DNA of 64,000 bases from a virus, in the IMG/VR virus record IMGVR_UViG_3300037258_001195, positions 28,988 through 92,987 of that record; one strand, given 5' to 3'. This document shows, piece after piece, positions 1,038-57,018 of this stretch. The notes under the pieces were generated by a model, which worked only from the letters and a program-made list of their open reading frames with translations, searched no databases and was not told the origin of the DNA. Within the stretch, counting starts at the first letter, position 1; each line of letters begins with the position of its first letter. The position numbers and the translations under genes are program-made.

Positions 1038-3401
1038 TTACGACGTTCCAGCTAAGTTGCCGGTCAAATTTGCCAACGTAGCATCAGTTCGATTCGGGAC
1101 AATCGAAAGAATATCACCGGGAACAAAACTCTCAGCAGTTCCGGTAAAGGTGGCATCTGTATCGGTGGCAAGAATAGTCATGGTGCCGAAATTAGTCCCA
1201 TTCTTATTTATATCAAATGTTGTATCTGCCGTTGCAGCGGTTCCCGCCGTACAGACGCTTCCGGAGAGATTTAAGGGAAAATTGTCCGCTGCCCCGAAAG
1301 TATAATTTAAAATCGGCGTTCCACTATGCGGAATTCCACCGAACGAGAACGGAATATTAACCGGATTGACTCCGCCCGCTCCCGTCAACGTGTACGTGAA
1401 GGCGGTTACTGTTGATAGGTCCTGGGTTGAATTCAAAAACTCATTGAAGCTCTGTAGTTTCACGAAAATTGTTGACCCAACAAGGTTGGAATTATAGTTA
1501 TATTTCACAACGCCAATTGGATCGGTTTGAATTCCAATATAAGCAAATTGCGACCCGCTAGAGTGCGAGCCAGGAGTGGTCCCAAATAGACCCCTATACA
1601 AGGTCGTAATGTCATATTTCGACGTAGCTGTTAAAGTTGCTGTTTCATACGAGAGCAATTCTTCATCGCAATAACACAACGTAACCCCGCTCGCAGCATC
1701 GCTAGACGAGGCAGATGTAATCACCCCGTTGCTTTCAGAGATATCAATTTTCAACGTATGTGTCGTATCAGGATTCGCGCCACTATGCGCTAGGAGCGCT
1801 GCTGTTAGGACTCCCTGCCTGAGCCCTGTATAAAGTGTCCCAATATTAGCATACGTACTGCCATCGGTCGAGACATTAACAATACAGCCACCCCAATCTG
1901 GACCACCTGAAGCACAAATCCACGCTTGGTTCTGCCCCGACGACAGCGGCGCATTAGGCTCAAAGATAATCGGAGAGTTTGTATCCCCCGGGTCGACAAA
2001 CACATTTGGCGTCTGAGAGCTTGGTGGAGACATAGAAAACACCGGCGTACTTGACACAACTGTCGGAATCTCTTCCGCCTCGAAGCTCAACTCTCCATTG
2101 TCGTTTTCACTAATCGACGTAATTCGCACCGGTGTATTAGACAACCCCGCATTGACATCGGTTAATTCAACGATATCCATTGGGTCCAGAAGCGCGAATA
2201 TCCAGCCCAATTGAAACTTATATGTGTTTCGGACGTTTTGTTTTCTTTGCACCTGGATTGTTGCCGACGCAAAAGCCGACACTAAATTCGTCATAGAATG
2301 GGCTTCTTTTGTCGCCTCATTCCTGACTCCCGGCCCACCCGTCTCCGCCGCAACGCTGTCGATGGCCCCTTGATCGAAAAAATTGGTAATATTCGCGTTA
2401 TAGGAGTTACTTGAGTCCAGGTACTCAAGTGCTAACCAATTAGTCGCTAATGTTGGATCACTTCGAGTTGTAATAACCGGATCGCTATCGCCGCCCCAGT
2501 CAATAAAATCCCGATCCGAGAGAGTATATTGAACAGTTAGATTTGGGGTCCAAGATCCTCCAAATCCACTATACGGCGACACAGCATATGGAACAACCTT
2601 TAACAATGCACTGGACCAAAATGGCGCCGCTACTGTAAGATCGCAAATCTCCTCTATCCAACGGGCGGCTGGCTGGCATCGGTCGAGAATCATCGACATT
2701 GCCAACCCGGCGGCCTGACAGTAGTTGCCAAAATCTGCCAGTGTCCCTGCACTATCGACATTCGCCGCTGGAAATCCTGCACCATACCTAGCATTCGTGC
2801 ATAGATCAACTATGATCCCAGACGGTCGGGCGTCGTCGGGAAAACTACTCCCCATCGATCCCGCAAGAGTTCCAGTTATTTCAAAACTAACATTCGGGAG
2901 CGTTGGCGCTTGACCGAGCTGAAGCGGCGTTCCGGTTACGTAGCACGTTCCCGAATATCCAATAACAGGTTGATTGGGATCTTTTGCCACAAATGTCGAA
3001 TCTGCCGCCTGCCCATCTGACCCGCCGTATGCATTTAAGCCAACCGCACCAGGTCCATAGGCAATTCCGTCATTGGCCCAAATTCGATTTTCCCCTCCAA
3101 CTCCATATTGCGCGCCGGTAAAGCCGGCTGGACCTTGACAAATTCCAAACGCAGTGTAGACAGAATACGTCGCCGCCTTTTTCCCACCAGACTTTCCGAT
3201 CGCTCCGCCTTTACCGCCCTTAGACCCGGCGCCGTTGAAGTCCCAAAGTTCAAGAACATTAATTGAAACTCGTTGCGTACCATATACGATTGGAAGGGGT
3301 TGACCCTGTTGGGACGTATTGTATCTGAGGCTGCCAATTGCCGGCTCCGCGAAAGCATTAACAAACGGCGTTGGCGCGCCACCTTTCCCGACCTCAGGCA
3401 T
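1038..3401 (-). CDS. Tail tip / host-specificity protein (Phage-tail_3, GTA megatron-like)
   Basis: GQPLPIVYG N-terminus, PNVSFEI and LDPMDIVELTD motifs; follows NlpC/P60. Confidence 0.85.
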   Translation of the reverse strand: MPEVGKGGAPTPFVNAFAEPAIGSLRYNTSQQGQPLPIVYGTQRVSINVLELWDFNGAGSKGGKGGAIGKSGGKKAATYSVYTAFGICQGPAGFTGAQYGVGGENRIWANDGIAYGPGAVGLNAYGGSDGQAADSTFVAKDPNQPVIGYSGTCYVTGTPLQLGQAPTLPNVSFEITGTLAGSMGSSFPDDARPSGIIVDLCTNARYGAGFPAANVDSAGTLADFGNYCQAAGLAMSMILDRCQPAARWIEEICDLTVAAPFWSSALLKVVPYAVSPYSGFGGSWTPNLTVQYTLSDRDFIDWGGDSDPVITTRSDPTLATNWLALEYLDSSNSYNANITNFFDQGAIDSVAAETGGPGVRNEATKEAHSMTNLVSAFASATIQVQRKQNVRNTYKFQLGWIFALLDPMDIVELTDVNAGLSNTPVRITSISENDNGELSFEAEEIPTVVSSTPVFSMSPPSSQTPNVFVDPGDTNSPIIFEPNAPLSSGQNQAWICASGGPDWGGCIVNVSTDGSTYANIGTLYTGLRQGVLTAALLAHSGANPDTTHTLKIDISESNGVITSASSSDAASGVTLCYCDEELLSYETATLTATSKYDITTLYRGLFGTTPGSHSSGSQFAYIGIQTDPIGVVKYNYNSNLVGSTIFVKLQSFNEFLNSTQDLSTVTAFTYTLTGAGGVNPVNIPFSFGGIPHSGTPILNYTFGAADNFPLNLSGSVCTAGTAATADTTFDINKNGTNFGTMTILATDTDATFTGTAESFVPGDILSIVPNRTDATLANLTGNLAGTS

Positions 3402-3886: not shown

Positions 3887-4826
3887 AGCCGCCGTAAAAA
3901 GCTAGATTATTCAACGTCCCTTGACAAAAGCTCGCCTGATGCGTACAGCCGGGAAGAAGCTGGAACAAGTCCCCCACCATAACCGGATACGGGAAGCCGC
4001 GAAGTAATCCAACTATTGTTGGGATTCCCACGCTTTGAATTCCGCGCGAAATGCCGGTGTTTTGCCCCGAAAGTCCAGTGCAGGTTCCAAGGGCCATGTA
4101 CGATGGAACCCCAATGGCGTTAATAATATCCGTTTGAGACGACCCAGCAACGGCCTCTATATTAAACGCGCCAACTCCGGTCGGTGTCCCGTTGCCATTA
4201 TTTCCCGTCACCCGGTCAAATTTACACATAGCATCCCCGAAGATATGCGTACAGCCGCTTTGAAACAACCTCCGTGGCATCTGCTGTTGTTGGAGCAAAT
4301 TAATATACGACTTAATCTTCATCTTAATCACACTGCGGCTAATATCAATGTCCGCGACTTTGCCATAAAACCAAACAATACAACCGAGGTCGGAAACTAA
4401 AGGTCCCGCGAACCCGTCGCCTCCGGTTGGGATAAAAAATCTATCTACCTCGACCGTTGCCCCGTCAAATCCTCCCGCCTGGGCGAATTGCTGCCAGGTT
4501 AGAGTTCCGACCATATCCGCTGATTCAGCCGTCGTACTACCGGCAGCGTAGACGTCTAAGTCTAATTCTGCGGGCTCAATTCCCACTTTCGTGTTAACTT
4601 TTGTCCGCCCAAATCGCGGTCCGCGTGAGAATATGACATTTCCACTCGCGGCATAATTTAAGGGCGATCCGGGAAAATTCGTGGCTGGAATTGTTAGTGT
4701 CGATAATGGATAATCACATTGACGAAGAACAATCCCTCCCGCAAGCGCAAACGTATATAAGTCACACAACACAACCGTGTCGTTGGAATTGAGATAATTA
4801 ACCAGCGCTGTCAAGGCAGGCTTCAC
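3852..4826 (-). CDS. DUF2163 / BR0599-family tail hub protein
   Basis: GGFDGATVEVDR, C.H.FGD..C, PGC....C, YGGFDYVP; GTG start overlaps the upstream stop. Confidence 0.85.
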   Translation of the reverse strand: MKPALTALVNYLNSNDTVVLCDLYTFALAGGIVLRQCDYPLSTLTIPATNFPGSPLNYAASGNVIFSRGPRFGRTKVNTKVGIEPAELDLDVYAAGSTTAESADMVGTLTWQQFAQAGGFDGATVEVDRFFIPTGGDGFAGPLVSDLGCIVWFYGKVADIDISRSVIKMKIKSYINLLQQQQMPRRLFQSGCTHIFGDAMCKFDRVTGNNGNGTPTGVGAFNIEAVAGSSQTDIINAIGVPSYMALGTCTGLSGQNTGISRGIQSVGIPTIVGLLRGFPYPVMVGDLFQLLPGCTHQASFCQGTLNNLAFYGGFDYVPPPEYAL

Positions 4827-5113
4827 GACACGTCCCCGTCTATAATAGCTCCTGTCCAACCGCAAGGCGGCGGATGTAAGATCCAACCTTTTACGCTTAA
4901 GGTCGAGAAATCATACCCTGATACGGAATATCTGCTTTGGGGAAACGCCAAGGCGTCGAGTCCCTCATACCAAATCACAATCATCCCACCGCATCGCGGA
5001 CAATTGAACGAAAATCCATTCGCCAAAACTGCATCAATGACACGATCATAATGCAGACTATGAGCCTGTCGACGAAATCGAAGAAATTCCGGACGAAATA
5101 ATTCTAATCTCAC
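4823..5113 (-). CDS. Small Cys-containing protein (DUF6527-like) inserted between the distal tail and hub genes
   Basis: FNCPRC ... CGWTGAIIDG; coupled at both ends by GTGA overlaps. Confidence 0.5.
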   Translation of the reverse strand: MRLELFRPEFLRFRRQAHSLHYDRVIDAVLANGFSFNCPRCGGMIVIWYEGLDALAFPQSRYSVSGYDFSTLSVKGWILHPPPCGWTGAIIDGDVS

Positions 5114-5733
5114 AGCAACACCGACTGAAGTTTCAATTCCTGCAACGTCCAAAGTTGCCGCATGAATTGTTCGAAATCCTCCGTATCATCGGCGAATCGA
5201 CAGATAAAGTAGAAACTAAATGTTGCAGTAATAGATGCATTGTTCGGGGGAGCGGTTGTAAACGTGACCACGCCAGTTCCAATGTTCACGGTATAGTCGG
5301 TAACCGCCAACCCATTTACATATATACCCTCAATGACATTTGGAGCCAAAATGGGCTCCGTGAACGACGTTCCTCCATAGTACGTCATAGTCCTGACAAG
5401 TTGAAACGCCGTGAACGTCCCATTTCCCACACCAATCGGCTGCATAGCAATATAATTGTCCGTTTCATCATTAAATAGAAACGGCGACAATGATCCTTGT
5501 TGGGCCATAAACAGGCCCATAAGGACACGTAATTCATCAAATTTATTCTTGTATAATTTTGGCCCCAATCCCCGCAGAAAGTCAAACCGCAATTTAAACA
5601 GCCAAGTTGGAACTGGTTGATATGTCAGCCTAAGCTCCCTACCACTGACACCTTTTTGGGTCTTAGTTTTGAACTGCGGGGATTTTGTTGTACTGTACGT
5701 CAATCCGGGGAGTGTCGGAAATATTACAGCCAC
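5110..5733 (-). CDS. DUF2460 distal tail protein
   Basis: FPTLPGL, SGRELR, IGVGNG..TAFQLVR, CRFADD. Confidence 0.9.
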   Translation of the reverse strand: MAVIFPTLPGLTYSTTKSPQFKTKTQKGVSGRELRLTYQPVPTWLFKLRFDFLRGLGPKLYKNKFDELRVLMGLFMAQQGSLSPFLFNDETDNYIAMQPIGVGNGTFTAFQLVRTMTYYGGTSFTEPILAPNVIEGIYVNGLAVTDYTVNIGTGVVTFTTAPPNNASITATFSFYFICRFADDTEDFEQFMRQLWTLQELKLQSVLL

Positions 5734-6754: not shown

Positions 6755-9478
6755 TCAACCGCCAACCCATCCCGACGTGTTCCGAAAGGCGAGGCACGCC
6801 ACCGAGCCGCCGCCGGTGAATGTCCCACCGAAACTCGGGCACGATGTAAGTTGGTCGGTGACGTAGGCGATATCGCCAGCAGCTCCCGTGGGAAGCGATG
6901 CTACGGCAAAGCCCTTAAGCCGAGCGAGCGAACCGAAAACAATCTCTCCCGTGCCTTTGCCATTCAGTCCCAAGGCGATATTGGTGTCGCTGCCAACGGC
7001 CTCTATCTCGACCGGACTGCCTGCGTGGGAGGCAACGAATGCGGGATAATTCGCATTGGCAATTCCCCCACCGCCGCCCGCGAATTCCGCGAAATTTCCT
7101 AAACTAGTGGTATTATCTACTGTACTATATGATGTGATAAAAAAGTTGGCACCGTTCGTCACTCCGAGAGTGGCGGTAGAATGGCCCGCGCCGACGCACA
7201 GGTTGTTGCCCTCAAGCATGCAACCACTTATCGTCAGATTACCGCCGGAAGCCAGGTCGATTCCGGTCGCGATTGTGCTGGCACTGGGTACTACAGCAGC
7301 CATTAACGAACTGGTCGTGGTTAAGGGCCATTGCTGATCTGAGCCCCCGACGAGGATTGCCTGGTTAACCGATGCCCCCGACTGGATCGAAGTGATCCAT
7401 ATTCCAGCACATTCGCTGTAAACGTTCGTGCAGCCGACATCGCCGTTCCACAGGGCAAGCGTGAGGCCGACCTTGTGTTGCGAGAAAACGTTCGCTTGCA
7501 GCCCGTAATCAATCTCAAGCCCCTCGACCGAGTGAAGATAAGCGTTGCCGCTGGCTGGAGTTTTCCCAAGCTCTTGAATTCCGAGACCGTAAAAATCCCC
7601 GATCCCATTGCCGCTGCCAGAAGTTCCCCCAAGATTCACCTTGATCGTTTGACTGAAAAGCGCCTCCGGCCAGTAAGCGTTTCCGTTGACTTGCGAGCCG
7701 CCGGCATTATCGATTGTCTGGTTAAGCGCCAAGACTGAACCAGATCCCTCCCACGAGCCACTCAACGTCATATCGATTGACAGGCAATTTACGGCATCAG
7801 GGCTGCTCACGCCGATTGTCGGCGCGCTGACGCTCGACGTACAGCGGATCGCGTTGATGGGCTGCGTGTATCCTTGCGTCAACAGGAGCGCGGTGCTGAT
7901 CGTCGAATCTCCGGCGAGCGACGACACGTCGTAAAAGCCGGTGTTCGCCGCCCCGAACGCGCCCGAGATCGTAATCGCCGGCGCCATCGCAAGATTCGTC
8001 AGCGGCGTCGTCTGGCCGAGCGCCGCGTCGTCGATCGTACCACTGCTGGCCGTAAGGTTCGGCGTTTTAGTGCCAACCCCAGTCATTACCGAGACATTGC
8101 CCGTTGCAGTATTGGTGATGCTAGTCTTACTACTAAGTCCAACAATATTAAGATAGCCCCACGCTCCACCCTGAACAACTACGGCACCGCCGACTTCCAC
8201 ATTCGACACCGAAGCAATAGAATTCACCGCACCATCAACCGTCAACGTCCCTGAAATATACAGATTCGCGAGATTTAGTGCATCGTATTGAACAGCCGGA
8301 AGCGTGAAGGATGAGACGAAAAGGAAATCATCGTGAAAATTATCTTCAGTCATTACCGACGCTCCTATGTCAAACATAGGCAATGTCGGCGCATTTATAG
8401 TCGTATTGGCAACATTAAGCCTGAAAGGCGGCATGGTAGCGTCACTATGAATAATGGCAACGCCATTTCCAAGCGACATATCCACAACACTATCATCGAG
8501 AGTAATAATGCCGTCTATATATGAGGCAACATTGTAATAGTCAATAAAATAATCCGGAGACTGACTTCCCAGATTATATTGGCAATTTGTGCAGATAATT
8601 CCATTCGGATTGGTTCCGGTAATTCCCCAAAATGAAATCGAGGTTGCCTGATCGCCGCTCCCATTCAGTCCAAATCGAGCATTACTGATATATAGCTCTG
8701 GAAAACTATCATCAATAGTATGGCGACCGGTTAGGTTCCAAGTATATAAGTTATTACAATGTGCCGATACTCCATTTTCCCATTCAAATCCATTAACGGC
8801 ATTATAGGCCATGAGATTGTTGCAGTGGGAATTATTTCCCTGAAACGCGATTCCGGTTGCGCTTCCGCTGGGCGTTCCAGCAAAGGAGACAAGCAAGTTT
8901 TCGACATTGCCGCCGGCAGCAGTTGCCCCCGACACCCCGAAAGTTGCACAAACGCCTGTTACTGTATCATCGCAGATAATATGCGGTCCAAGGGGAGTAT
9001 TAGTCGGGGTAATTGCTGATCCCCCGCGCACAATTGCCGACCCAAAAGCAAGTGCAAGACTAGACCGAAATGTAAGAGACGGGATAATAATCGGTGCAAC
9101 ATTCGCAGCAGAATATGCAATAGCCTTGACAATACTCGCGTTCGCGTCCGTGCTTCCGCCTGGTACTGCCCCGAAATCACGAATGTCTATTCCGAGGGGA
9201 TCAGGGTTAGCCTCCCACCGTCCGGTTGCAGGATTAGTTGCCGGCTTTATGCAACTACCTCCATCATCGGTGCACGACGACGCCCCCTTCCAATTAAATT
9301 GAATAGCGGGCGAATCACCCGATGTCGCAAATCCCGTTCGAATTACTTGAGTATATTGTCCTGGAATCAGCGCGCGGAGGGCTGTATTGCTTTGAATTTG
9401 CGGAACTGAAACGGGGTCGGCATGGGCTGCGAACGCAAATAGGCCAGTAAACAAGATGCTTGCGAGTATTTTACGCAT
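6755..9478 (-). CDS. Tailspike-like beta-helix protein (pectate-lyase-like) with an N-terminal signal peptide
   Basis: DIRDFGAVPGG..DANASI..AI motif typical of beta-helix tailspikes; G/S/T/N-rich; MRKILASILFTGLFAFAAHA|D. Confidence 0.75.
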   Translation of the reverse strand: MRKILASILFTGLFAFAAHADPVSVPQIQSNTALRALIPGQYTQVIRTGFATSGDSPAIQFNWKGASSCTDDGGSCIKPATNPATGRWEANPDPLGIDIRDFGAVPGGSTDANASIVKAIAYSAANVAPIIIPSLTFRSSLALAFGSAIVRGGSAITPTNTPLGPHIICDDTVTGVCATFGVSGATAAGGNVENLLVSFAGTPSGSATGIAFQGNNSHCNNLMAYNAVNGFEWENGVSAHCNNLYTWNLTGRHTIDDSFPELYISNARFGLNGSGDQATSISFWGITGTNPNGIICTNCQYNLGSQSPDYFIDYYNVASYIDGIITLDDSVVDMSLGNGVAIIHSDATMPPFRLNVANTTINAPTLPMFDIGASVMTEDNFHDDFLFVSSFTLPAVQYDALNLANLYISGTLTVDGAVNSIASVSNVEVGGAVVVQGGAWGYLNIVGLSSKTSITNTATGNVSVMTGVGTKTPNLTASSGTIDDAALGQTTPLTNLAMAPAITISGAFGAANTGFYDVSSLAGDSTISTALLLTQGYTQPINAIRCTSSVSAPTIGVSSPDAVNCLSIDMTLSGSWEGSGSVLALNQTIDNAGGSQVNGNAYWPEALFSQTIKVNLGGTSGSGNGIGDFYGLGIQELGKTPASGNAYLHSVEGLEIDYGLQANVFSQHKVGLTLALWNGDVGCTNVYSECAGIWITSIQSGASVNQAILVGGSDQQWPLTTTSSLMAAVVPSASTIATGIDLASGGNLTISGCMLEGNNLCVGAGHSTATLGVTNGANFFITSYSTVDNTTSLGNFAEFAGGGGGIANANYPAFVASHAGSPVEIEAVGSDTNIALGLNGKGTGEIVFGSLARLKGFAVASLPTGAAGDIAYVTDQLTSCPSFGGTFTGGGSVACLAFRNTSGWVGG

Positions 9479-27721: not shown

Positions 27722-29208
27722 GCCGCGTCCCTCGCATGTCCATAACCAGCGCAGCCTGGATGCCAGACAAATTCCCCGTCCGACACGCGATCCCCGGCCG
27801 AAACTGGGTCACCGCAGCGATGACATGTCCGCTCGCGGCGCGGCGTGAGGGCTTCGACGGTGGATTGATAGATTTTCGTCAGTTCGTTCTCGAAATCGAC
27901 ACCGAGATTCTCATCTTCGTGATTCCACGGGAGCCGCGGCTTCGGATCGTCAGAGACATTCTCGATTGTCCGCTTGGCTTCGCCGGCGTAGTAGGACATA
28001 AGGCTCGCCCCGGGCGCGACTTCGGTCAGCATTTGGCGCGCGAGAGCCAGGGAACACACGCAATCGTCGTTATGTCCCTCTGGGGCAGAATATCTAACGC
28101 CAGTACGGGTGGTCTCGTATTCGAAAATTTCCAATTCTTGGGAAATCGGCCCCTCGGGATAACCGATGTCGTGGCCTTGAATAGAGACGGAAAGCCCCTC
28201 CATCAGACGCTGCTTCGAGAGTTGGGTGAAATTATAGCCTGTGAAATTTCCATGCTCGACCTGGAGTTCTTCCAGTACTGGGTCGCCAACTCCGGTTGAG
28301 TCCACCAGGGCCGGCGTGTCTTCCCCGACAATCGCGTGGATGCGCCGAATTGATTCGGTCCAGGGAACTCCGCGCCACCGCTCGAAAACAGCCGTTTGAC
28401 CATCCTCATCGAGGCCAATGACCACGAGATAGTCTTGTTTTTTCGCGAGGTCGACGCCGAAGGCAACTGCGGGCTTGAGGCTTAGACCGTTTTGGATGCA
28501 CGCGGAGATATGGGCAAAGCCGAATGGGTTTCCGCCGTCGTCACTGGCCGCCGCCTCATACAGCTCCAGGAAGACTTGTTCGGGAAGATTTCGCCGAGCG
28601 TCTTCGATTTCCTCGATGTCCAGGACGCCCGCATCGACCGCGTCGCGCCAAGTGATCCGCTCGAAATGTGCGTTGGGGTCTTTGCCTGCCTCGACTCGGC
28701 GCGCCCACTCGTAGAACCAATTCCTTCGGCCCTTGACGTTGCCGATGATAACCGCCCAGCCGCGCGTTGCGGTCAAGGTTGATCGGACGGCATACCATGC
28801 TTCCGGGCGGGCGCGGCTAGCTTCATCGATAACAGCGCCGAAGACGTCTTCGCCATAGAGACTGTCGGGATTGTCCGCCGACTTAAACCAGAGGACTGCG
28901 CCGGTAATTAAGGTGATTGATGGAGTCGGGCTTTCGCGCGCCGTGAAAGATCCCGCCGTTAGGTTTTGCTTGACGCGGGCGAAGGCGATCCGAGCTTGGT
29001 CGGAAACCGGCGCGACCCACCAGAAGTTCTGGCCGAAAGTCCCATTCAGGCCGGCCTCGATGAGCCGCACGATCGCCCCGACAGTTTTGCCTGATTTGGT
29101 TGAGGCTTCGCAAAGAGCCCAACGTTTGGACGGGAATATGGCGCGTTCTTGCTTTGGATATAAATACGGGCGCTCGTAAACGGTTATGGGTGAACCAGTT
29201 TCGTCCAA
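27718..29208 (-). CDS. terL: Terminase large subunit
   Basis: Walker A ASTKSGKT, Walker B VIDEA, nuclease GVDLAKKQD and HNDDCVCSLAL. Confidence 0.92.
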   Translation of the reverse strand: MDETGSPITVYERPYLYPKQERAIFPSKRWALCEASTKSGKTVGAIVRLIEAGLNGTFGQNFWWVAPVSDQARIAFARVKQNLTAGSFTARESPTPSITLITGAVLWFKSADNPDSLYGEDVFGAVIDEASRARPEAWYAVRSTLTATRGWAVIIGNVKGRRNWFYEWARRVEAGKDPNAHFERITWRDAVDAGVLDIEEIEDARRNLPEQVFLELYEAAASDDGGNPFGFAHISACIQNGLSLKPAVAFGVDLAKKQDYLVVIGLDEDGQTAVFERWRGVPWTESIRRIHAIVGEDTPALVDSTGVGDPVLEELQVEHGNFTGYNFTQLSKQRLMEGLSVSIQGHDIGYPEGPISQELEIFEYETTRTGVRYSAPEGHNDDCVCSLALARQMLTEVAPGASLMSYYAGEAKRTIENVSDDPKPRLPWNHEDENLGVDFENELTKIYQSTVEALTPRRERTCHRCGDPVSAGDRVSDGEFVWHPGCAGYGHARDAA

Positions 29209-50748: not shown

Positions 50749-52173
50749 TTGGGGGACGAAGACGTGGTAAAAACAGTTGCGATAGATGATATAATAATTC
50801 GCCCCAACCGGCAAAGAAAGACCACCAAGGACGTCGACCCTCAATTCATCGCAAGCGTTAATCGGCGACTAATCAACCCCATTATCCTTATATCTCAACC
50901 CGACGGCATTGTCCTTTGTGCCGGCGAGCGACGACTAATTGCCCTTCGCGCCGGAAGCGTAACAGACCTAATTGAAAACGTCCATTTCCGCTTCTTCGCT
51001 GACCTCAATTCCGACGAAGCGGAAATTATCGAACTTGAAGAGAACGTGAAACGCGAGGATCTACATTGGCGCGATCATGTTGCCGCTGTAGGACGAATCC
51101 ATGCGATCTTCAAAGCTCGCGATGAAACCTGGACCGACCGAAAAACCGCCCAAGAGATTAATACCTCCCGGACAAGCATTAAAGAACATCTGATGATCTT
51201 TCGAAATCTCGACAACACGGCCCTCCGCGATGCAACTGGGACCAAACAAGCCTATTCTATCCTTCAAGGGATTGCCGAGCGCCGAACGGTCTCAATCGTG
51301 CAGGCGGTGACCAAGGTCGGTAGCGAAATTTTCGACATAAAGGCGCAAAGTAATGACCCGAGCGGGAATAATAGTCCAAGTCCTATTCCTAATTCTAATC
51401 CTAGTCATACTTCCCGGCTTAGCTCTCCTATCCCATCATCTCCTATCCCGCCTGATATCCCGCCTATGCCAGACAAAGAGCCCGAACCATCAATCCTAAA
51501 CACGGATTTTATAAAATGGATCTCAGGCTACTCGGGTGACAAATTCACCTTAATTCACTGTGACTTCCCGTATGACGTCAAATACGATTCCTATGCAAAG
51601 AGTATCTCGTCCGTGACCGACGATTATGACTTCTCTGGCTTCTGGCCCCTGATAGACGCCCTGTGTGGCAATCTCGACAAGATAATGTCCTATTCTGCCC
51701 ACATGATGTTCTGGTTTTCCATGAAATTCTACGAACAAACCAAAGGTCGATTGGAAAAAGCCGGCCTTTATGTCCACGATCATCCTTTTGTCTGGCAAAA
51801 AACCGACAACGCTGGAATTATCCCCGGGCGAGATGGTATTTTCCCGCGCCGCATTTACGAAACTGCATTTCTCTGTTCTCGTGGTCGCCGCCCGCTCGTT
51901 AAGTCCTTAGCAAACTGCTACGGCGCCCCGATGCAGTCGAATTCCATCCATCCCTCCACCAAGCCTGTCCCCGTGCTCAAGCATTTTTTTGCTATGCTCA
52001 TTGACGAAACTACTGATGTTCTAGACCCAACTGCAGGCAGCGGAAACAGCTTAATCGCCGCGGAGGACATGGGCGCGCGAAAGATCCTCGGACTAGAAAT
52101 CAATCCGACCTACGCAACCGCCGCACAAAGCGCGCTAGAGCGGTTTCGGGTTATGAGAAAGATCAGCAAATGA
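50749..52173 (+). CDS. ParB-like domain fused to an N6/N4 DNA methyltransferase
   Basis: LINPI..AGERRL.A..ELEEN..R; DFPY, HPS.KP, VLDPTAGSG. Confidence 0.85.
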   Translation: MGDEDVVKTVAIDDIIIRPNRQRKTTKDVDPQFIASVNRRLINPIILISQPDGIVLCAGERRLIALRAGSVTDLIENVHFRFFADLNSDEAEIIELEENVKREDLHWRDHVAAVGRIHAIFKARDETWTDRKTAQEINTSRTSIKEHLMIFRNLDNTALRDATGTKQAYSILQGIAERRTVSIVQAVTKVGSEIFDIKAQSNDPSGNNSPSPIPNSNPSHTSRLSSPIPSSPIPPDIPPMPDKEPEPSILNTDFIKWISGYSGDKFTLIHCDFPYDVKYDSYAKSISSVTDDYDFSGFWPLIDALCGNLDKIMSYSAHMMFWFSMKFYEQTKGRLEKAGLYVHDHPFVWQKTDNAGIIPGRDGIFPRRIYETAFLCSRGRRPLVKSLANCYGAPMQSNSIHPSTKPVPVLKHFFAMLIDETTDVLDPTAGSGNSLIAAEDMGARKILGLEINPTYATAAQSALERFRVMRKISK

Positions 52174-52379
52174 CCCTAGATCAACTAATCCAAGCTTGTA
52201 TCGCAAAGAAAGTCGGCAATAAAGAGTTCGCCCTATTCTTCATCCCTCCCGATTGGAGTGCTGACATAGGAAATCCGACTTCAGTGGTTATGCTGGGAGA
52301 AGCGCGGGGGGAAATATGTAGTGACGAGCACCCGACAGCAATCGCAGCAGTCGCACAACTATTGGAACGAATTCCATGA
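52170..52379 (+). CDS. Hypothetical protein
   Basis: ATGA-coupled at both ends. Confidence 0.55.
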   Translation: MTLDQLIQACIAKKVGNKEFALFFIPPDWSADIGNPTSVVMLGEARGEICSDEHPTAIAAVAQLLERIP

Positions 52380-52417
52380 AGGTCGTTCTCGTCGCAGAGG
52401 CCTGGGGACGCCGATGA
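52376..52417 (+). pseudogene. Orphaned 5' stub of the UDG-exo gene (MKVVLVAEAWGRR*)
   Basis: 11/13 aa identical to the N-terminus of 52842-54140. Confidence 0.85.
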
Positions 52418-52851
52418 AAGAAATAATATTATCCAATGGGTTAATAGCTCTCGTCGATGACGATGACTATTCTCGACTTAGTAACTTTAGTTGGTTTGCG
52501 ATGCCACGACGTAATACAAATCATGCCGCACGTAAAGATAATAGTGGATGGGGAAAATACAGATACCGTAAGAATATATACATGCATACAGATGTTATGG
52601 GAATAACTCCAGATAATCTAGTATTGGATCATATAGATAGAAATGGGCTAAATAATCAAAAAGCCAATTTGCGATTCGTAACATACAGCCAAAATGCTGT
52701 AAATTCAGAGCGAAATGAAAGGGGACACATAGAGCGTCATGGTCGAAAATGGAGAGTTCGCGTGAAGCGTGAAGGAATTAGAATAGAGATTGGATCATTC
52801 TATACACATGAATCTGCAACCAAAGCTCTAGAGGACTTTCTATGCGAGTAG
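52414..52851 (+). mobile_element. Free-standing HNH homing endonuclease (HNH plus AP2-like domain)
   Basis: ALVDDDDY, YMH, DHIDRNGLNNQKANLR, KWRVRV..IGSF; AT-rich. Confidence 0.88.
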
Positions 52852-54140
52852 TACTTGTTGCGGAAGCATATGGACGCCGCGAAGCCCAGTTTCAACACGC
52901 GCTGGTTGGTCCATCTGGCCGCGAACTAACCCTCGAAATGGCAATCGCCGGCTTCGCGCCCTATATGACCCTCCTATGCCGAAAGTGCAGCAAGACCTCT
53001 CAATTCATCGACGGTTTTTGCGAGCATTGCCGCGAGTACATATGGCCGAATGAATTTGACTTAATCGCCCATTGGAAACGTCTTAAGGAAATTTTAGGCT
53101 TCCACGTCACAAATGTATTTAATTTCCAGCCACCAAGCATCTGCTCGAATTGCGGCGCTCTCGGATCGGCAATTCGCTTCGGCACCGCCCCCAAGTGCAA
53201 AGACTGTGGCTCGAAAGAAATCCGCGAAAACGACCTGTCGAGCCTCTTCGGAACCGAAATCGAAACCCCCCTCGTTGGTTGGCGCGCCCCGAAGCGGACT
53301 GGAAGCCACCTCAAACGAGAGTATTTCTTCCACATTGAACGGCTTTGGAAAGAATTGAAGAGCCTCAACCCAAATCTCGTCGTTGCTCTCGGCAATTGTC
53401 CCTGCTGGGCAATTCTCGACCAACCTGGCATCACCGCGGCACGCGGAACAATCTCGACCTCAGAGCGCCTCGGCTTTAAGGTTCTTCCGACATTTCATCC
53501 CGCTGCCGTCCTCCGGAACACGGCCCTCCGCGCGACCTGTATCGCCGACTTCCAAAAAGCCGCCCGCGAGGCTGAATTTCCCGAAATTCGTCGCCAGGAG
53601 CGCTGGATTGAAATAATCGACCCTACTGAAGAAGGAATTCGTCGTGGATACGAATGGTTTAAAAAGCCTGCCCGAGCCTACGCAAACGATATTGAGACTC
53701 ATAAGCGACAAATTACCATTGTTGGATTCGCACGCTCCGTCGACGATGCGCTTGTCATTCCCCTTAGAGTCGAACCTCCAAGGGCAAAACTTAAAAATTC
53801 TGATGGAAAGCTTGTCGCCAACCCAAATTATGAGGCTGAACTCCTTTCGTTCGAGCCGAACTACTGGCCGACGCCAGAATTAGAAGCCAAAGCCTGGAAG
53901 CTAATTCAACACGGCTTGCAGACTCCTCAGCCGAAGATATTCCAGAACGGACTTTACGACATGAGCTATGAGCTTCTTCTCGGCCTTCAGCCCGTCAATG
54001 CCATCCACGACACGATGCTTTGGCACCATTCTCTGTATCCTGAATTGCCAAAGTCACTTGGCTTCCTCGGGTCCATCTATTGCGCAGAAATTGCATGGAA
54101 GAGTATGAGACGTGGTGAGACATTAAAAAGGGATGAATAA
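52842..54140 (+). CDS. Uracil-DNA-glycosylase-like domain plus the N-terminal part of the DNA polymerase 3'-5' exonuclease
   Basis: EAYG..E, VGPSG, TNV, VVALG, TFHPAAVLR; ExoI DIET, ExoII QNGLYD, HDTML, KSLGFLGS. Confidence 0.85.
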   Translation: MRVVLVAEAYGRREAQFQHALVGPSGRELTLEMAIAGFAPYMTLLCRKCSKTSQFIDGFCEHCREYIWPNEFDLIAHWKRLKEILGFHVTNVFNFQPPSICSNCGALGSAIRFGTAPKCKDCGSKEIRENDLSSLFGTEIETPLVGWRAPKRTGSHLKREYFFHIERLWKELKSLNPNLVVALGNCPCWAILDQPGITAARGTISTSERLGFKVLPTFHPAAVLRNTALRATCIADFQKAAREAEFPEIRRQERWIEIIDPTEEGIRRGYEWFKKPARAYANDIETHKRQITIVGFARSVDDALVIPLRVEPPRAKLKNSDGKLVANPNYEAELLSFEPNYWPTPELEAKAWKLIQHGLQTPQPKIFQNGLYDMSYELLLGLQPVNAIHDTMLWHHSLYPELPKSLGFLGSIYCAEIAWKSMRRGETLKRDE

Positions 54141-54723
54141 AATGCCGAGATATGGATGGCGTAAAAGCTACGCTAAAATTTGCTCTATTGATGGATGTAA
54201 CGATGCCGTAAAATATAAAGGCATGTGCGGAATGCACTATAAACGACAATGGCGTCATGGAGATGTTAATATTTCACTAATTCCACACGAATTTACTGAC
54301 CGACATGTATGTGACGTTGATAGTTGTCAAGAATTACAATATGCTAGTAATTCTCCATATTGTAAGAAGCATTATTTACGTCTGTATAGGTTTGGTAGAT
54401 TGCATAATATAAAAAACGGATATGGCGAAAGTAAAGTTAGACATAAAGCAGCTGGTGGATATTGGGAGATAAACGATGAAGAAGGAAGAAAGATATATGA
54501 GCACGTTTGGTTAGCTGAAAAAGCACTGGGAAAGAAGCTACCATCAGGTGCTATAGTTCATCATATGAATAAAGATCGAGGTGACAATGATACACCATTC
54601 AATCTAATAGTTTGTCCTAATCAAGCATATCATCTACTATTACATAAACGAATGCGAGATTTAGGATATATCGGAGATCTCTTGGAAACAAATGAGACGT
54701 GGCGAGACCCTAAAGCGGGATGA
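54133..54723 (+). mobile_element. Free-standing HNH homing endonuclease with two N-terminal Cys/His repeats
   Basis: C..DGC..C..HY.R x2, EH...AE..LG, VHHMNKDRGDN..NL; AT-rich. Confidence 0.85.
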
Positions 54724-54727
54724 ATAA
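54674..54727 (+). pseudogene. Orphaned 3' end of the UDG-exo gene (EISWKQMRRGETLKRDE*)
   Basis: 15/17 aa identical to 54087-54140. Confidence 0.85.
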
Positions 54728-54956
54728 AATGAAAAATTGGCTAAAATTTGAATATGGTACGTATATAAATGGAATAGAATGGAAGACGGAAGGAATGGTA
54801 TACATAGACCCGGCAGCTATATCTTCAGTTATGGAAATATCACGACACTTTCCAAATGCGACAGGCTGTTGTATATATTTAGGATATTCAGGCAAACAAT
54901 ACGCTGTTCGCGAATCCATCAGCGCTGTTATGGCTGAAATTCAGTCCGCACTTTAG
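54720..54956 (+). CDS. Small hypothetical protein (FlbD-like pattern)
   Basis: VYIDP..ISSV.E...V.ES...V. Confidence 0.5.
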   Translation: MNKMKNWLKFEYGTYINGIEWKTEGMVYIDPAAISSVMEISRHFPNATGCCIYLGYSGKQYAVRESISAVMAEIQSAL

Positions 54957-54976
54957 TTGAGAAAGGACGACCCGAC

Positions 54977-55510
54977 ATGACAATCCTCTCTGCCCAGTCA
55001 ATTCGACTCTTAAGTCGTCTATCAAAGACTGATACATCATATATGTACCTACACACGAGAGGGGGAAAAGTCACATTTAGACCTGGTAAACCTCTCATTA
55101 CTCCCTTTGTCGAGCGCGGCGTGAAGAACGGACGATCTTTCGGCCTTTCTGCCTGCTCCTATGATTGTCGAATTGCTGATGGTCTCGTCATTCCCGTCGG
55201 CCAATCGCGCCTCGCAAGCACAATGGAGCGATTCTGTCTACCCAACAACATCTGCGGCTCAGTGTTGGACAAATCAACCTGGGCCAGAAAGTTCCTCTCG
55301 GCCTTTAATACCCATTTGGACCCCGGCTGGGAAGGCTTCCTAACGGTGGAGTTAACTAACCTTGGTTCCGAAGCCGCATTTTTCGAGCCAGGCGATTCAT
55401 TGGTCCAAATAAAGTTCGAGTGGCTCGATGAACCAACGAACCTTCCATATTCAGGAAAATATCAAGCCCAGGAAGCTGGTCCACAAGGGCCGCGAAGTGA
55501 GCAGACCTGA
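54977..55510 (+). CDS. dcd: dCTP deaminase
   Basis: SFGLS..SYD, DKSTWAR, NT.LDPGWEGFLTVEL, Y.GKYQ.Q. Confidence 0.88.
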   Translation: MTILSAQSIRLLSRLSKTDTSYMYLHTRGGKVTFRPGKPLITPFVERGVKNGRSFGLSACSYDCRIADGLVIPVGQSRLASTMERFCLPNNICGSVLDKSTWARKFLSAFNTHLDPGWEGFLTVELTNLGSEAAFFEPGDSLVQIKFEWLDEPTNLPYSGKYQAQEAGPQGPRSEQT

Positions 55511-57018
55511 TGCCTCTAATTGCCGCCCATGAAACGAACATTTCCGCCGGAACCCAGACCATTTACAACGGTTTCGACTGTGCCCTAACGTTTCAGATCG
55601 ATGAGGTCCGCCAGAACCTTCACGCCAACGACACCCTAATCTATGATTTCGAACGGGCTATGCAGGGTTCCGCACTAGAAATGTCCCTGCGCGGTTTTCG
55701 TGTCGACATCGACGAACGGGAGCGGGCGATCATCTCGACACGTTCCCGCCGCAACGACTACAGCTATGTGTTGCAGAAGATTCTTGAGGCAATTCCCGGT
55801 AATTGGACTGATAAGCTCGCGGGCTCCCCAACTCAACTTCAAGCCCTGTTCTACGACACCATGAACCTTCCACAATTCCCCAAATTCGTCAACGGCGAGC
55901 GCAAGCTCCCAATGAACCGAGAAACGTTGGAGAAAATCCAGCTAACCGACCCCTGGGCCGACGTCCTAATCAACACAATCCTCTGGAGCCGAGACCTCTC
56001 AAAGACGCTCCAGGTCCTTGAAACAGAAATTCGCGCCGACGAAAGCCGGTTTCCCGGCGACTTAAATTGGCGCTGGCACTGTTCCTACAACATCGGGGGA
56101 ACAACAACAGGGAGGTGGAGTTCCAGCAAATCCCCCTTCGGAGACGGAAATAACTTCCAAAATGTCAGTGAGGAACTTCGCCGTGTTTTCATTCCTGACC
56201 CAGGCTTTAAACTCTATGGGATTGACAAAGCGCAAAGCGAAGCCCGAGATGTCGGGTGGTTTTGCGGTCTTGTTTTCGGAGATTGGAGTTACTTGGACGC
56301 CTGTGAGTCTGGCGACCTCCACACAAACGTCACCAAACTCCTTTATCCTGAGTGGTCCTGGACCGGGGACGCTAAACGGGATCGTCAAATTGCCGAACGG
56401 CGATTCTATCGACTATTCACTTACCGTGACGCGTCGAAGCGCCTCGGACATGCCACAAATTACCTGGTTACACCGGCTGAAGCCTCCCGACAAATCAGAA
56501 TTCCATTAAATCTCGTTGAGGAATTCCAGCGCCGATATTTCGCTGCCTTCCCCTGCATTCGGATGATGCATGACTGGGTATCGAGCGAACTCCAAAGGAA
56601 GCGATATCTCGTCAATTCCTTTGGCCGCCGGCGAGATTTTTTCGACCATCCCAAGAGTCGAGAAACTTTAAAGGGCGCAATCGCCTATTTGTTTCAGTCC
56701 GCTACCGGCGACTGCCTCAACCTGGGCCTTTATCGACTTTGGACTCGCATGAAGGGTCGAATTGAAATCCTCTCCCAGCTCCACGACGCGGTCTATTTTC
56801 AGGCCCCGATTTCAAAGAGCGACGCCGAAGAACAGGAACTTCTCCGCGAGTGTATTGATTGCATCGAGGTCGAACAAACTACAACCCGAAACGGGGGGCG
56901 GAAGATGAAAATCCCTGGAGACATCGTTGGGGGTTTTAATTGGGCTCATAGGTTTAGATTTGGCGGTAAAGATGACTGGAATCCAAAAGGTCTTGATGGA
57001 ATAAGGATCGCGGCATGA
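55510..57018 (+). CDS. Family A DNA polymerase (ExoIII plus polymerase domain)
   Basis: YNGFD, SPTQL, TTTGRWSSS, NFQN, motif A DKAQSEAR, GDLH, motif B K...H..NY, motif C HDA. Confidence 0.92.
   Translation: MPLIAAHETNISAGTQTIYNGFDCALTFQIDEVRQNLHANDTLIYDFERAMQGSALEMSLRGFRVDIDERERAIISTRSRRNDYSYVLQKILEAIPGNWTDKLAGSPTQLQALFYDTMNLPQFPKFVNGERKLPMNRETLEKIQLTDPWADVLINTILWSRDLSKTLQVLETEIRADESRFPGDLNWRWHCSYNIGGTTTGRWSSSKSPFGDGNNFQNVSEELRRVFIPDPGFKLYGIDKAQSEARDVGWFCGLVFGDWSYLDACESGDLHTNVTKLLYPEWSWTGDAKRDRQIAERRFYRLFTYRDASKRLGHATNYLVTPAEASRQIRIPLNLVEEFQRRYFAAFPCIRMMHDWVSSELQRKRYLVNSFGRRRDFFDHPKSRETLKGAIAYLFQSATGDCLNLGLYRLWTRMKGRIEILSQLHDAVYFQAPISKSDAEEQELLRECIDCIEVEQTTTRNGGRKMKIPGDIVGGFNWAHRFRFGGKDDWNPKGLDGIRIAA

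Follow-up and report, generated by a model that had tools for sequence, protein, structure and literature searches.

An HNH endonuclease gene between two copies of one gene start

The DNA analysed here, referred to as the window, is a stretch of 64,000 nucleotides (nt) of virus record IMGVR_UViG_3300037258_001195 (positions 28,988 to 92,987); the record is an IMG/VR 'provirus' of 93 kb and has the window at its right-hand end. In it, a gene for a UDG-like protein begins within the last codons of an HNH endonuclease gene, HNH1, which is itself preceded by a second, 13-codon version of the start of the UDG-like gene, here called the stub. The stub reads ATG AAG GTC GTT CTC GTC GCA GAG GCC TGG GGA CGC CGA TGA, and the gene restarts, 10 nt before the HNH1 stop, as ATG CGA GTA GTA CTT GTT GCG GAA GCA TAT GGA CGC CGC. 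The two starts are identical in 11 of 13 residues and 26 of 39 bases, with a different third position in eight of the 11 codons for identical residues, and both close with a common, identical 8-mer, GGACGCCG. Because a scan of every open reading frame (ORF) start in the window against its upstream 2.5 kb returned only this pair at 10/13, plus one background match at 8/13, the similarity lies well beyond chance.

A preliminary description of this locus, made from the sequence, had noted the stub, its ATGA overlap into the HNH gene and the restart behind that gene, and all of these elements are borne out by our check of the sequence and its ORFs. The restart is also, as described, written in more AT-rich codons. 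At third codon positions the G+C content (GC3) of the new start, 0.31, is close to that of HNH1 (0.29), whereas the stub has 0.69 and the rest of the UDG-like gene 0.55; the best GC3 change point of that gene falls at codon 11. Stub, HNH1 and UDG-like gene each occupy a frame of their own and are separated by stops. The arrangement is carried with zero differences by contigs from other soil samples (an X3 contig over 52339-53019 and an X4 contig over 52288-52482), and is therefore not an artefact of a single assembly. Contigs of four other soil runs over 51200-55600, where coverage was low and patchy, had the same sequence and contained no joint that skips either endonuclease gene, a result that at such coverage carries no weight as to variants lacking the HNH genes.

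HNH1 belongs to Pfam family HNH_3 (E 3.4e-7, above the cut-off) and to the HNH endonuclease families of PHROG. Its motif DH.D.NGLNN...NLR.VT...N aligns to I-HmuI (1U3E) as a weak match (E 0.12); even with the threshold at E <= 5, HNH1 gave no match to Pfam AP2, and PF00847 is present in several relatives that are 38-41% identical to it. By these matches HNH1 is a free-standing homing endonuclease gene of the phage HNH_3 type, with putative nuclease activity. Together with the second endonuclease gene of the locus, HNH2, it makes up both the only HNH_3 genes of the record and its two most AT-rich islands (G+C 0.38 and 0.37; window, 0.52). On the + strand, neither a promoter-like nor a terminator-like site was detected within 52376-52880, from the stub to the end of the duplicated start, and the phage GenBank collection gave no DNA match to the locus.

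The opposite end of the same UDG-like gene carries HNH2, a different HNH_3 gene, in the reverse layout. A repeat search found that HNH2 is bracketed by two 58-nt direct repeats, which are 78% identical and spaced by 587 nt. The inner one, copy A, contains the functional end of the UDG-like gene, and the outer one, copy B, a displaced version of that end which leads into a short ORF, orf78. Both HNH2 and orf78 start with the repeated ATGAATAAAATG, and the last ~16 codons of HNH2 are read from copy B in another frame. Copy A is the AT-richer of the two (GC3 0.28) and is probably derived from a donor. One gene thus has the HNH1 arrangement at its 5' end and, with HNH2, a mirror image of it at its 3' end. 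Comparison of orf78 with the ORF that follows the UDG-like gene in a related locus, L029, gave no detectable relation.

Table 1 Features of the locus, with coordinates counted from the first letter of the window
Feature	Coordinates	Strand	Basis or remark
ParB-like/N6_N4 methyltransferase gene	50749-52173	+	
up69, lineage-specific 69-aa ORF from the methyltransferase gene to the stub	52170-52379	+	stop TGA overlaps stub ATG (ATGA)
Stub: 13 codons, MKVVLVAEAWGRR, plus TGA supplied by the HNH1 start (ATGA)	52376-52417	+	
TGGGGA, spanning the W and G codons of the stub; spacing to the HNH1 ATG, 5 nt	52403-52408	+	read from sequence
HNH1, intact gene for a free-standing homing endonuclease of 145 aa (HNH_3, HNN-type)	52414-52851	+	Pfam, PHROG
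AGAGGA within the 3' end of HNH1, 6 nt before the new ATG	52830-52835	+	read from sequence
Replacement 5' end of the UDG-like gene, MRVVLVAEAYGRR, read in frame with the gene body	52842-52880	+	
UDG-like (family 4) plus exonuclease-region gene, 432 aa, intact; target of both endonuclease insertions	52842-54140	+	Pfam UDG, PHROG_17
Repeat copy A: functional gene 3' end, EIAWKSMRRGETLKRDE and stop, plus ATGAATAAAATG	54087-54144	+	repeat search, translation
HNH2, second, different HNH_3 gene with Cys-rich N-terminal region	54133-54723	+	Pfam
Repeat copy B: displaced gene 3' end, EISWKQMRRGETLKRDE and stop, plus ATGAATAAAATG, leading into orf78	54674-54731	+	
orf78, 78-aa ORF	54720-54956	+	
dCTP-deaminase-like gene	54977-55510	+	
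Family A polymerase gene	55510-57018	+	

The 432-aa product of the target gene combines an N-terminal half resembling family 4 UDG with a C-terminal half resembling a polymerase exonuclease region, as judged from Pfam UDG, the PHROG_17 DNA polymerase region and structures of family 4 UDG. Its family is large, comprising at least 575 IMG/VR loci and 1301 proteins (E <= 1e-3), and the protein aligns to its relatives over the full length. In this phage family the family A polymerase is naturally carried in two genes, one with the UDG-like and exonuclease regions and one with the polymerase domain. A stop/start overlap is found at every junction of the genes listed in Table 1, from the methyltransferase to the polymerase. 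Neither Pfam nor PHROG gave a match to the short ORF up69, which is coupled through ATGA overlaps on both sides, and none of the relatives examined has an equivalent of it.

With regard to the record as a whole, its G+C content is 0.564, compared with 0.519 for the window, and the part before the window (1-28987) is markedly GC-richer and may be host DNA or a different element. A profile scan of cellular genome bins with the family alignment returned mostly distant cellular UDGs, the top matches, L119 and L120, being contigs of Holophagaceae and Acidobacteria metagenome-assembled genomes. A scan of cellular genome contigs with the single protein P0037 gave no match. These sequence matches provide a weak hint that Acidobacteriota may be the host of this soil phage group.

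Uninterrupted alleles and recurrent stubs among relatives

The preliminary description had predicted that relatives without the HNH gene would run from the stub codons straight into the body of the gene, and this is what we find. In about 20 distinct related loci (50-58% protein identity) the methyltransferase gene is followed directly by an uninterrupted UDG-like gene that starts M[KR]xV.VGEAWGR; every relative without the HNH gene reads through the junction as M..V.VGEAWGR.E.., and the three closest proteins, P0014-P0016 (69-72% identical), start likewise. Nor do these alleles resemble the downstream copy more closely at the level of DNA, since the stub is the nearer of the two in 10 of the 12 relatives compared and the remaining two are tied, all of these relatives being distant. 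The stub carries the W that is typical of the family, while the new copy carries Y, and where the new copy has TAT all alleles without the HNH gene have a TGG or TTT codon. The stub can be read as native because it has the family W, a host-like GC3 and the closer relationship to most relatives; the new start shares the AT-rich composition of HNH1. On this evidence the stub looks native and the new start imported. Neither copy is aberrant, since AEAWG and GEAYG/AEAYG both occur in the family as natural variants.

The differences between the copies are themselves informative. Stub and restart differ by 13 bases and 2 residues, and eight of the ten differing codons are synonymous; the same counts hold for the two HNH2 repeats. 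When 13 substitutions were placed at random, two or fewer residue changes arose in none of 20,000 trials for either repeat of the window, and when half of the differences were taken as random the corresponding P values were 0.05 and 0.02. Because the differences are almost all synonymous, unlike those of drifting dead DNA, the copies must have diverged under selection at the protein level, and therefore as working gene ends in two different genomes. The idea in the preliminary description that the new terminus had been recoded is not upheld by these tests or by the natural variants. The pattern instead fits two orthologous gene starts, drawn from different phage lineages and neither recoded nor diverged in place.

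Related layouts recur elsewhere. In locus L057 (IMGVR_UViG_3300045284_000107, 2523-3040), whose UDG-like protein is 33% identical, a 9-codon stub (MKILLVGEA followed by a stop; found by eye) precedes an HNH1-like gene, and the UDG-like gene restarts as VKILLCGEAWG from a GTG codon in a GTGA overlap. The TGA of the upstream ORF90 overlaps the ATG of this stub, and ATGAAAGAAATA is the start of both HNH1 and the HNH1-like gene of L057. A second case, in locus L006 (IMGVR_UViG_3300027867_000003, 7244-8090), concerns another target: an HNH2-like gene lies 47 codons into a DUF3987 (primase/helicase-like) gene downstream of polA, with a stub ORF of 59 aa that matches the N termini of many orthologues. 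Here GC3 is 0.67 in the stub and 0.62 in the gene body, compared with 0.35 in the new start and 0.34 in the endonuclease gene, and the copies differ by 49 bases and 13 residues over 46 codons (22 synonymous against 13 non-synonymous). The AT-rich tract of this locus extends to about codon 80, some 33 codons past the repeat.

In a third locus, L028 (40% GC), there is no stub, and an HNH1-like gene (115-577) lies precisely in the gap from the stop of the methyltransferase gene to the start of the UDG-like gene. The gene is 46% identical to HNH1 over the nuclease and DNA-binding part and is split over two frames, which reflects either decay of the endonuclease gene or an error in sequencing. A tree that is poorly resolved and shows no site-specific clade places it as the weakly supported nearest neighbour of HNH1, and the gene order of L028 appears, in outline, to be the arrangement expected of a donor.

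Across the syntenic relatives, endonuclease genes of the HNH1 and HNH2 kinds are sporadic, being found in 10 of the 79 loci surveyed and at varying sites, and most relatives that share the methyltransferase, UDG-like and polA order are without HNH1. Several of these ten abut one or other end of the UDG-like gene with no remnant; none is seen beside the endonuclease genes of L052, L118 and L049, and a scan for terminal duplications of at least 9/13 in the 79 extra loci found none. In this small sample, stubs lie next to lineage-specific outer flanks (up69; ORF90 in L057; orf78 beside HNH2), and none is found where a conserved neighbour abuts (the methyltransferase gene in L028; polA in L049 and L118). 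Two of the related polymerase genes show interruptions of their own. In L029 (~4490-5380) the polA ORF is continuous but holds an in-frame insert of ~300 aa, with Cys after ..SPLGTG and an end ..TGN before SNFQN, which looks like an intein at a conserved polymerase motif, and polA of L118 has an interruption of ~800 nt.

Proposed origin and alternative explanations

We propose the following origin for the arrangement and consider it likely. HNH1 would have entered together with an adjoining piece of a related, AT-richer phage, comprising a ribosome-binding-like site, the start codon and approximately the first 10-13 codons of the UDG-like gene; this cassette would have been joined at codon 13/14, leaving the resident first 13 codons as the stub, and the gene would now be expressed from the imported start with no need for splicing. 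In a genome of the donor type the endonuclease gene would simply lie between the upstream gene and the UDG-like gene. The endonuclease would cut the resident gene near codon 13, and the gene-body side of the break would be repaired on the donor by homology, so that the gene start and the endonuclease gene of the donor are copied in. On the other side, which faces a lineage-specific ORF with no homology in the donor, the break would be closed by an illegitimate join that keeps the resident terminal fragment. HNH2 would have entered at the 3' end in the same way, with the sides reversed. The occurrence of stubs beside lineage-specific flanks fits such a repair with homology on one side, and in the homing of T4 introns one-sided homology has been found to give illegitimate break repair joined at microhomologies (PMC2988022).

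As regards expression, the overlapping stop and start codons suggest that stub, HNH1 and UDG-like gene are probably translated as a coupled chain. The TGGGGA element within the stub is a possible Shine-Dalgarno-like element for HNH1, and AGAGGA near the end of HNH1 may act as the ribosome-binding-like site brought in by the cassette. The overlaps also make plausible the cleavage resistance that the preliminary description ascribed to the new copy, along with its idea of coupling through the stub.

Several observations weigh against this origin. The left junction lies 0-4 nt from the endonuclease ATG in both the window and L057, which a random illegitimate join does not predict; selection for expression or coupled translation, or a shared ancestral cassette, may account for it. 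The compositional signal comprises only 13 codons, and about 10% of the gene's 13-codon windows have a GC3 as low. For the HNH2 repeats, the relatives are mixed as to which copy is native. No sibling without the HNH gene was recovered, so that the empty site is deduced from relatives at most 58% identical at the loci accessible as DNA; scans of IMG/VR and JGI metagenomes with P0014 did not bring up the contig that encodes it. The searches also turned up no donor genome in which either HNH1 or the new 5' end is present in identical form, the nearest relatives of HNH1 being 36-46% identical. Finally, the preliminary description had placed the insertion at a conserved coding site, and this is not seen in the DNA: the two junctions fall at the 46th (HNH1) and 54th percentile of 8-codon windows and hence outside the most conserved stretches.

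A more far-reaching view is that HNH endonucleases of soil phages routinely colonise coding sequences as 'portable terminus' cassettes, with no intron or intein. After a founding event of one-sided repair, such a unit of stub, endonuclease gene and foreign terminus would possess homology arms to its left and right and would home, as an intron does, into any empty allele, with the foreign, synonymously different terminus as its immunity determinant and the stub as a translational on-ramp, and one essential gene could be capped at both ends. We regard this as possible but doubtful.

The foremost rival, which corresponds to the view of the preliminary description and strikes us as unlikely though not negligible, takes the stub, the endonuclease gene and the replacement start together as the mobile unit, so that after one founding illegitimate event elsewhere ordinary two-sided homing would suffice. 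Homology would then be provided on the left by the stub and the DNA upstream of it and on the right by the gene body; the altered start would block re-cutting, and the stub would be functional and would not have been made in this genome. That the left junction sits at the ATG of the endonuclease gene in L057 as well as in the window, with the shared start of the two endonucleases, is what this explanation expects, as are the neat stop/start overlaps at both loci, the five base differences between stub and new copy within the 20 nt left of the junction, and the recurrence of the layout in the HNH2 repeats, L006 and L057. Yet the stubs are 13, 9 and 47 codons long, which argues for separate junction events, and the stub of the window is host-like in composition and overlaps a lineage-specific upstream ORF. 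L028, moreover, has a related endonuclease with no stub, and no second genome with the same cassette was found.

We find it improbable that the two copies arose in place, by local tandem duplication of the gene start or by a long target-site duplication on insertion, followed by divergence. Direct repeats do flank the endonuclease gene, and the shared terminal 8-mer would suit such an event. However, a dead copy should gain residue changes, and in each repeat of the window the differing codons are predominantly synonymous, as they also are in L006. The opposite base compositions of the copies, one matching the host and the other the endonuclease gene, and the continuation of the AT-rich tract of L006 well beyond its repeat, likewise speak against divergence in place.

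That the endonuclease gene sits within a self-splicing intron, an intein or a translational bypass, with the stub as the true start joined to codon 14, is highly improbable: HNH endonucleases are often found in group I introns and the polymerase gene of L029 has its intein-like insert, but no intron or other RNA family of Rfam was matched across 51800-55600 at E <= 1, the junction regions fold no better than shuffled sequence (z-scores 0.84 and 0.97), a second complete start with its own ATG would be redundant, and the 428-nt gap, containing a full ORF, is far beyond any known ribosomal hop. The three frames separated by stops exclude an intein and, with the lack of an Rfam match, agree with the preliminary description of an intron-less insertion inside the coding region that supplies a replacement 5' terminus. 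A bypass cassette of the T4 MobA/gene 60 type was also considered and rejected, the gene restarting at its own ATG with a ribosome-binding-like site.

Relation to known systems and biological meaning

The closest counterpart to the arrangement comes from fungal mitochondria, in which 'gene hybrids' created by mobile endonuclease ORFs (mORFs) have been described for atp6 of Allomyces macrogynus and for atp6, atp9, cox2 and nad3 of Glomus sp.; in these the endonuclease ORF carries a foreign C terminus and the native C terminus lies downstream (PMC3630166). As in the hybrids, an endonuclease ORF stands here between two diverged copies of a gene terminus, of which the copy contiguous with the gene is probably foreign, having come with the endonuclease gene, and the displaced one probably native, and the copies differ strongly in DNA and little in protein. 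HNH2 reproduces the mORF layout exactly, with the gene core followed by the probably inserted C terminus, the endonuclease and the presumed native terminus. The present case nevertheless departs from the hybrids in being found in a phage and not an organelle, with HNH_3 endonucleases in place of LAGLIDADG or GIY-YIG enzymes. HNH1 is moreover the mirror image at the 5' end, where a ribosome site and a start codon have to come with the cassette as well, and the leftover stub is an independent mini-ORF whose stop overlaps the start of the endonuclease gene. Two different endonucleases at both ends of one gene are a further difference.

Among phage systems, the intronless homing of the T4 Seg and Mob endonucleases (PMC2988022) is similar in that a free-standing endonuclease gene adjoins a conserved gene and is sporadic among syntenic relatives. 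There, as is proposed here, the neighbouring gene is cut at a distance from the endonuclease gene and the donor flank is co-inherited (PMC2988022). Both flanks recombine by homology in the described T4 cases and no stub is left, whereas in the present locus one of the junctions would have formed without homology, and the resident terminus has been kept. One-sided homing of the T4 intron, in which one side of the break has strong homology while the other is joined at a site with little or none, is akin to what we propose and offers a mechanism for it, but it is a laboratory result obtained with an intron, and the present cassettes are natural, free-standing and keep their target gene intact. 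Analogous to HNH1, too, are mobE in Aeh1 nrdA and mobA in T4 gene 39/60 (PMC2988022), where an HNH gene lies inside a conserved gene of replication or nucleotide metabolism that still works with neither RNA nor protein splicing. Those insertions, however, split the gene into two polypeptides (gene 60 adding a ribosomal bypass), while here the gene is whole and a short terminus has been replaced.

Our literature searches returned no explicit description of the 5'-end version in phages, which is not proof of its absence. The mitochondrial counterpart is already published; what is added here is the double, mirror-image capping of one gene and its independent recurrences in one phage family.

As the arrangement illustrates, an essential phage gene of replication or repair can harbour a selfish nuclease gene at no cost to the host and with no splicing machinery. 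Insertion near a gene end is tolerable if the cassette brings a spare end, which widens the range of sites open to homing endonucleases. The annotation of phages is confused by short orphan mini-ORFs and 'duplicated gene starts', for which the same arrangement provides an explanation, and such junctions mark precise boundaries of DNA exchange between phage lineages. Within one gene family there are here three or four junctions that arose naturally and independently, and they could serve for mapping cleavage sites and for testing one-sided break repair as the source of the cassettes.

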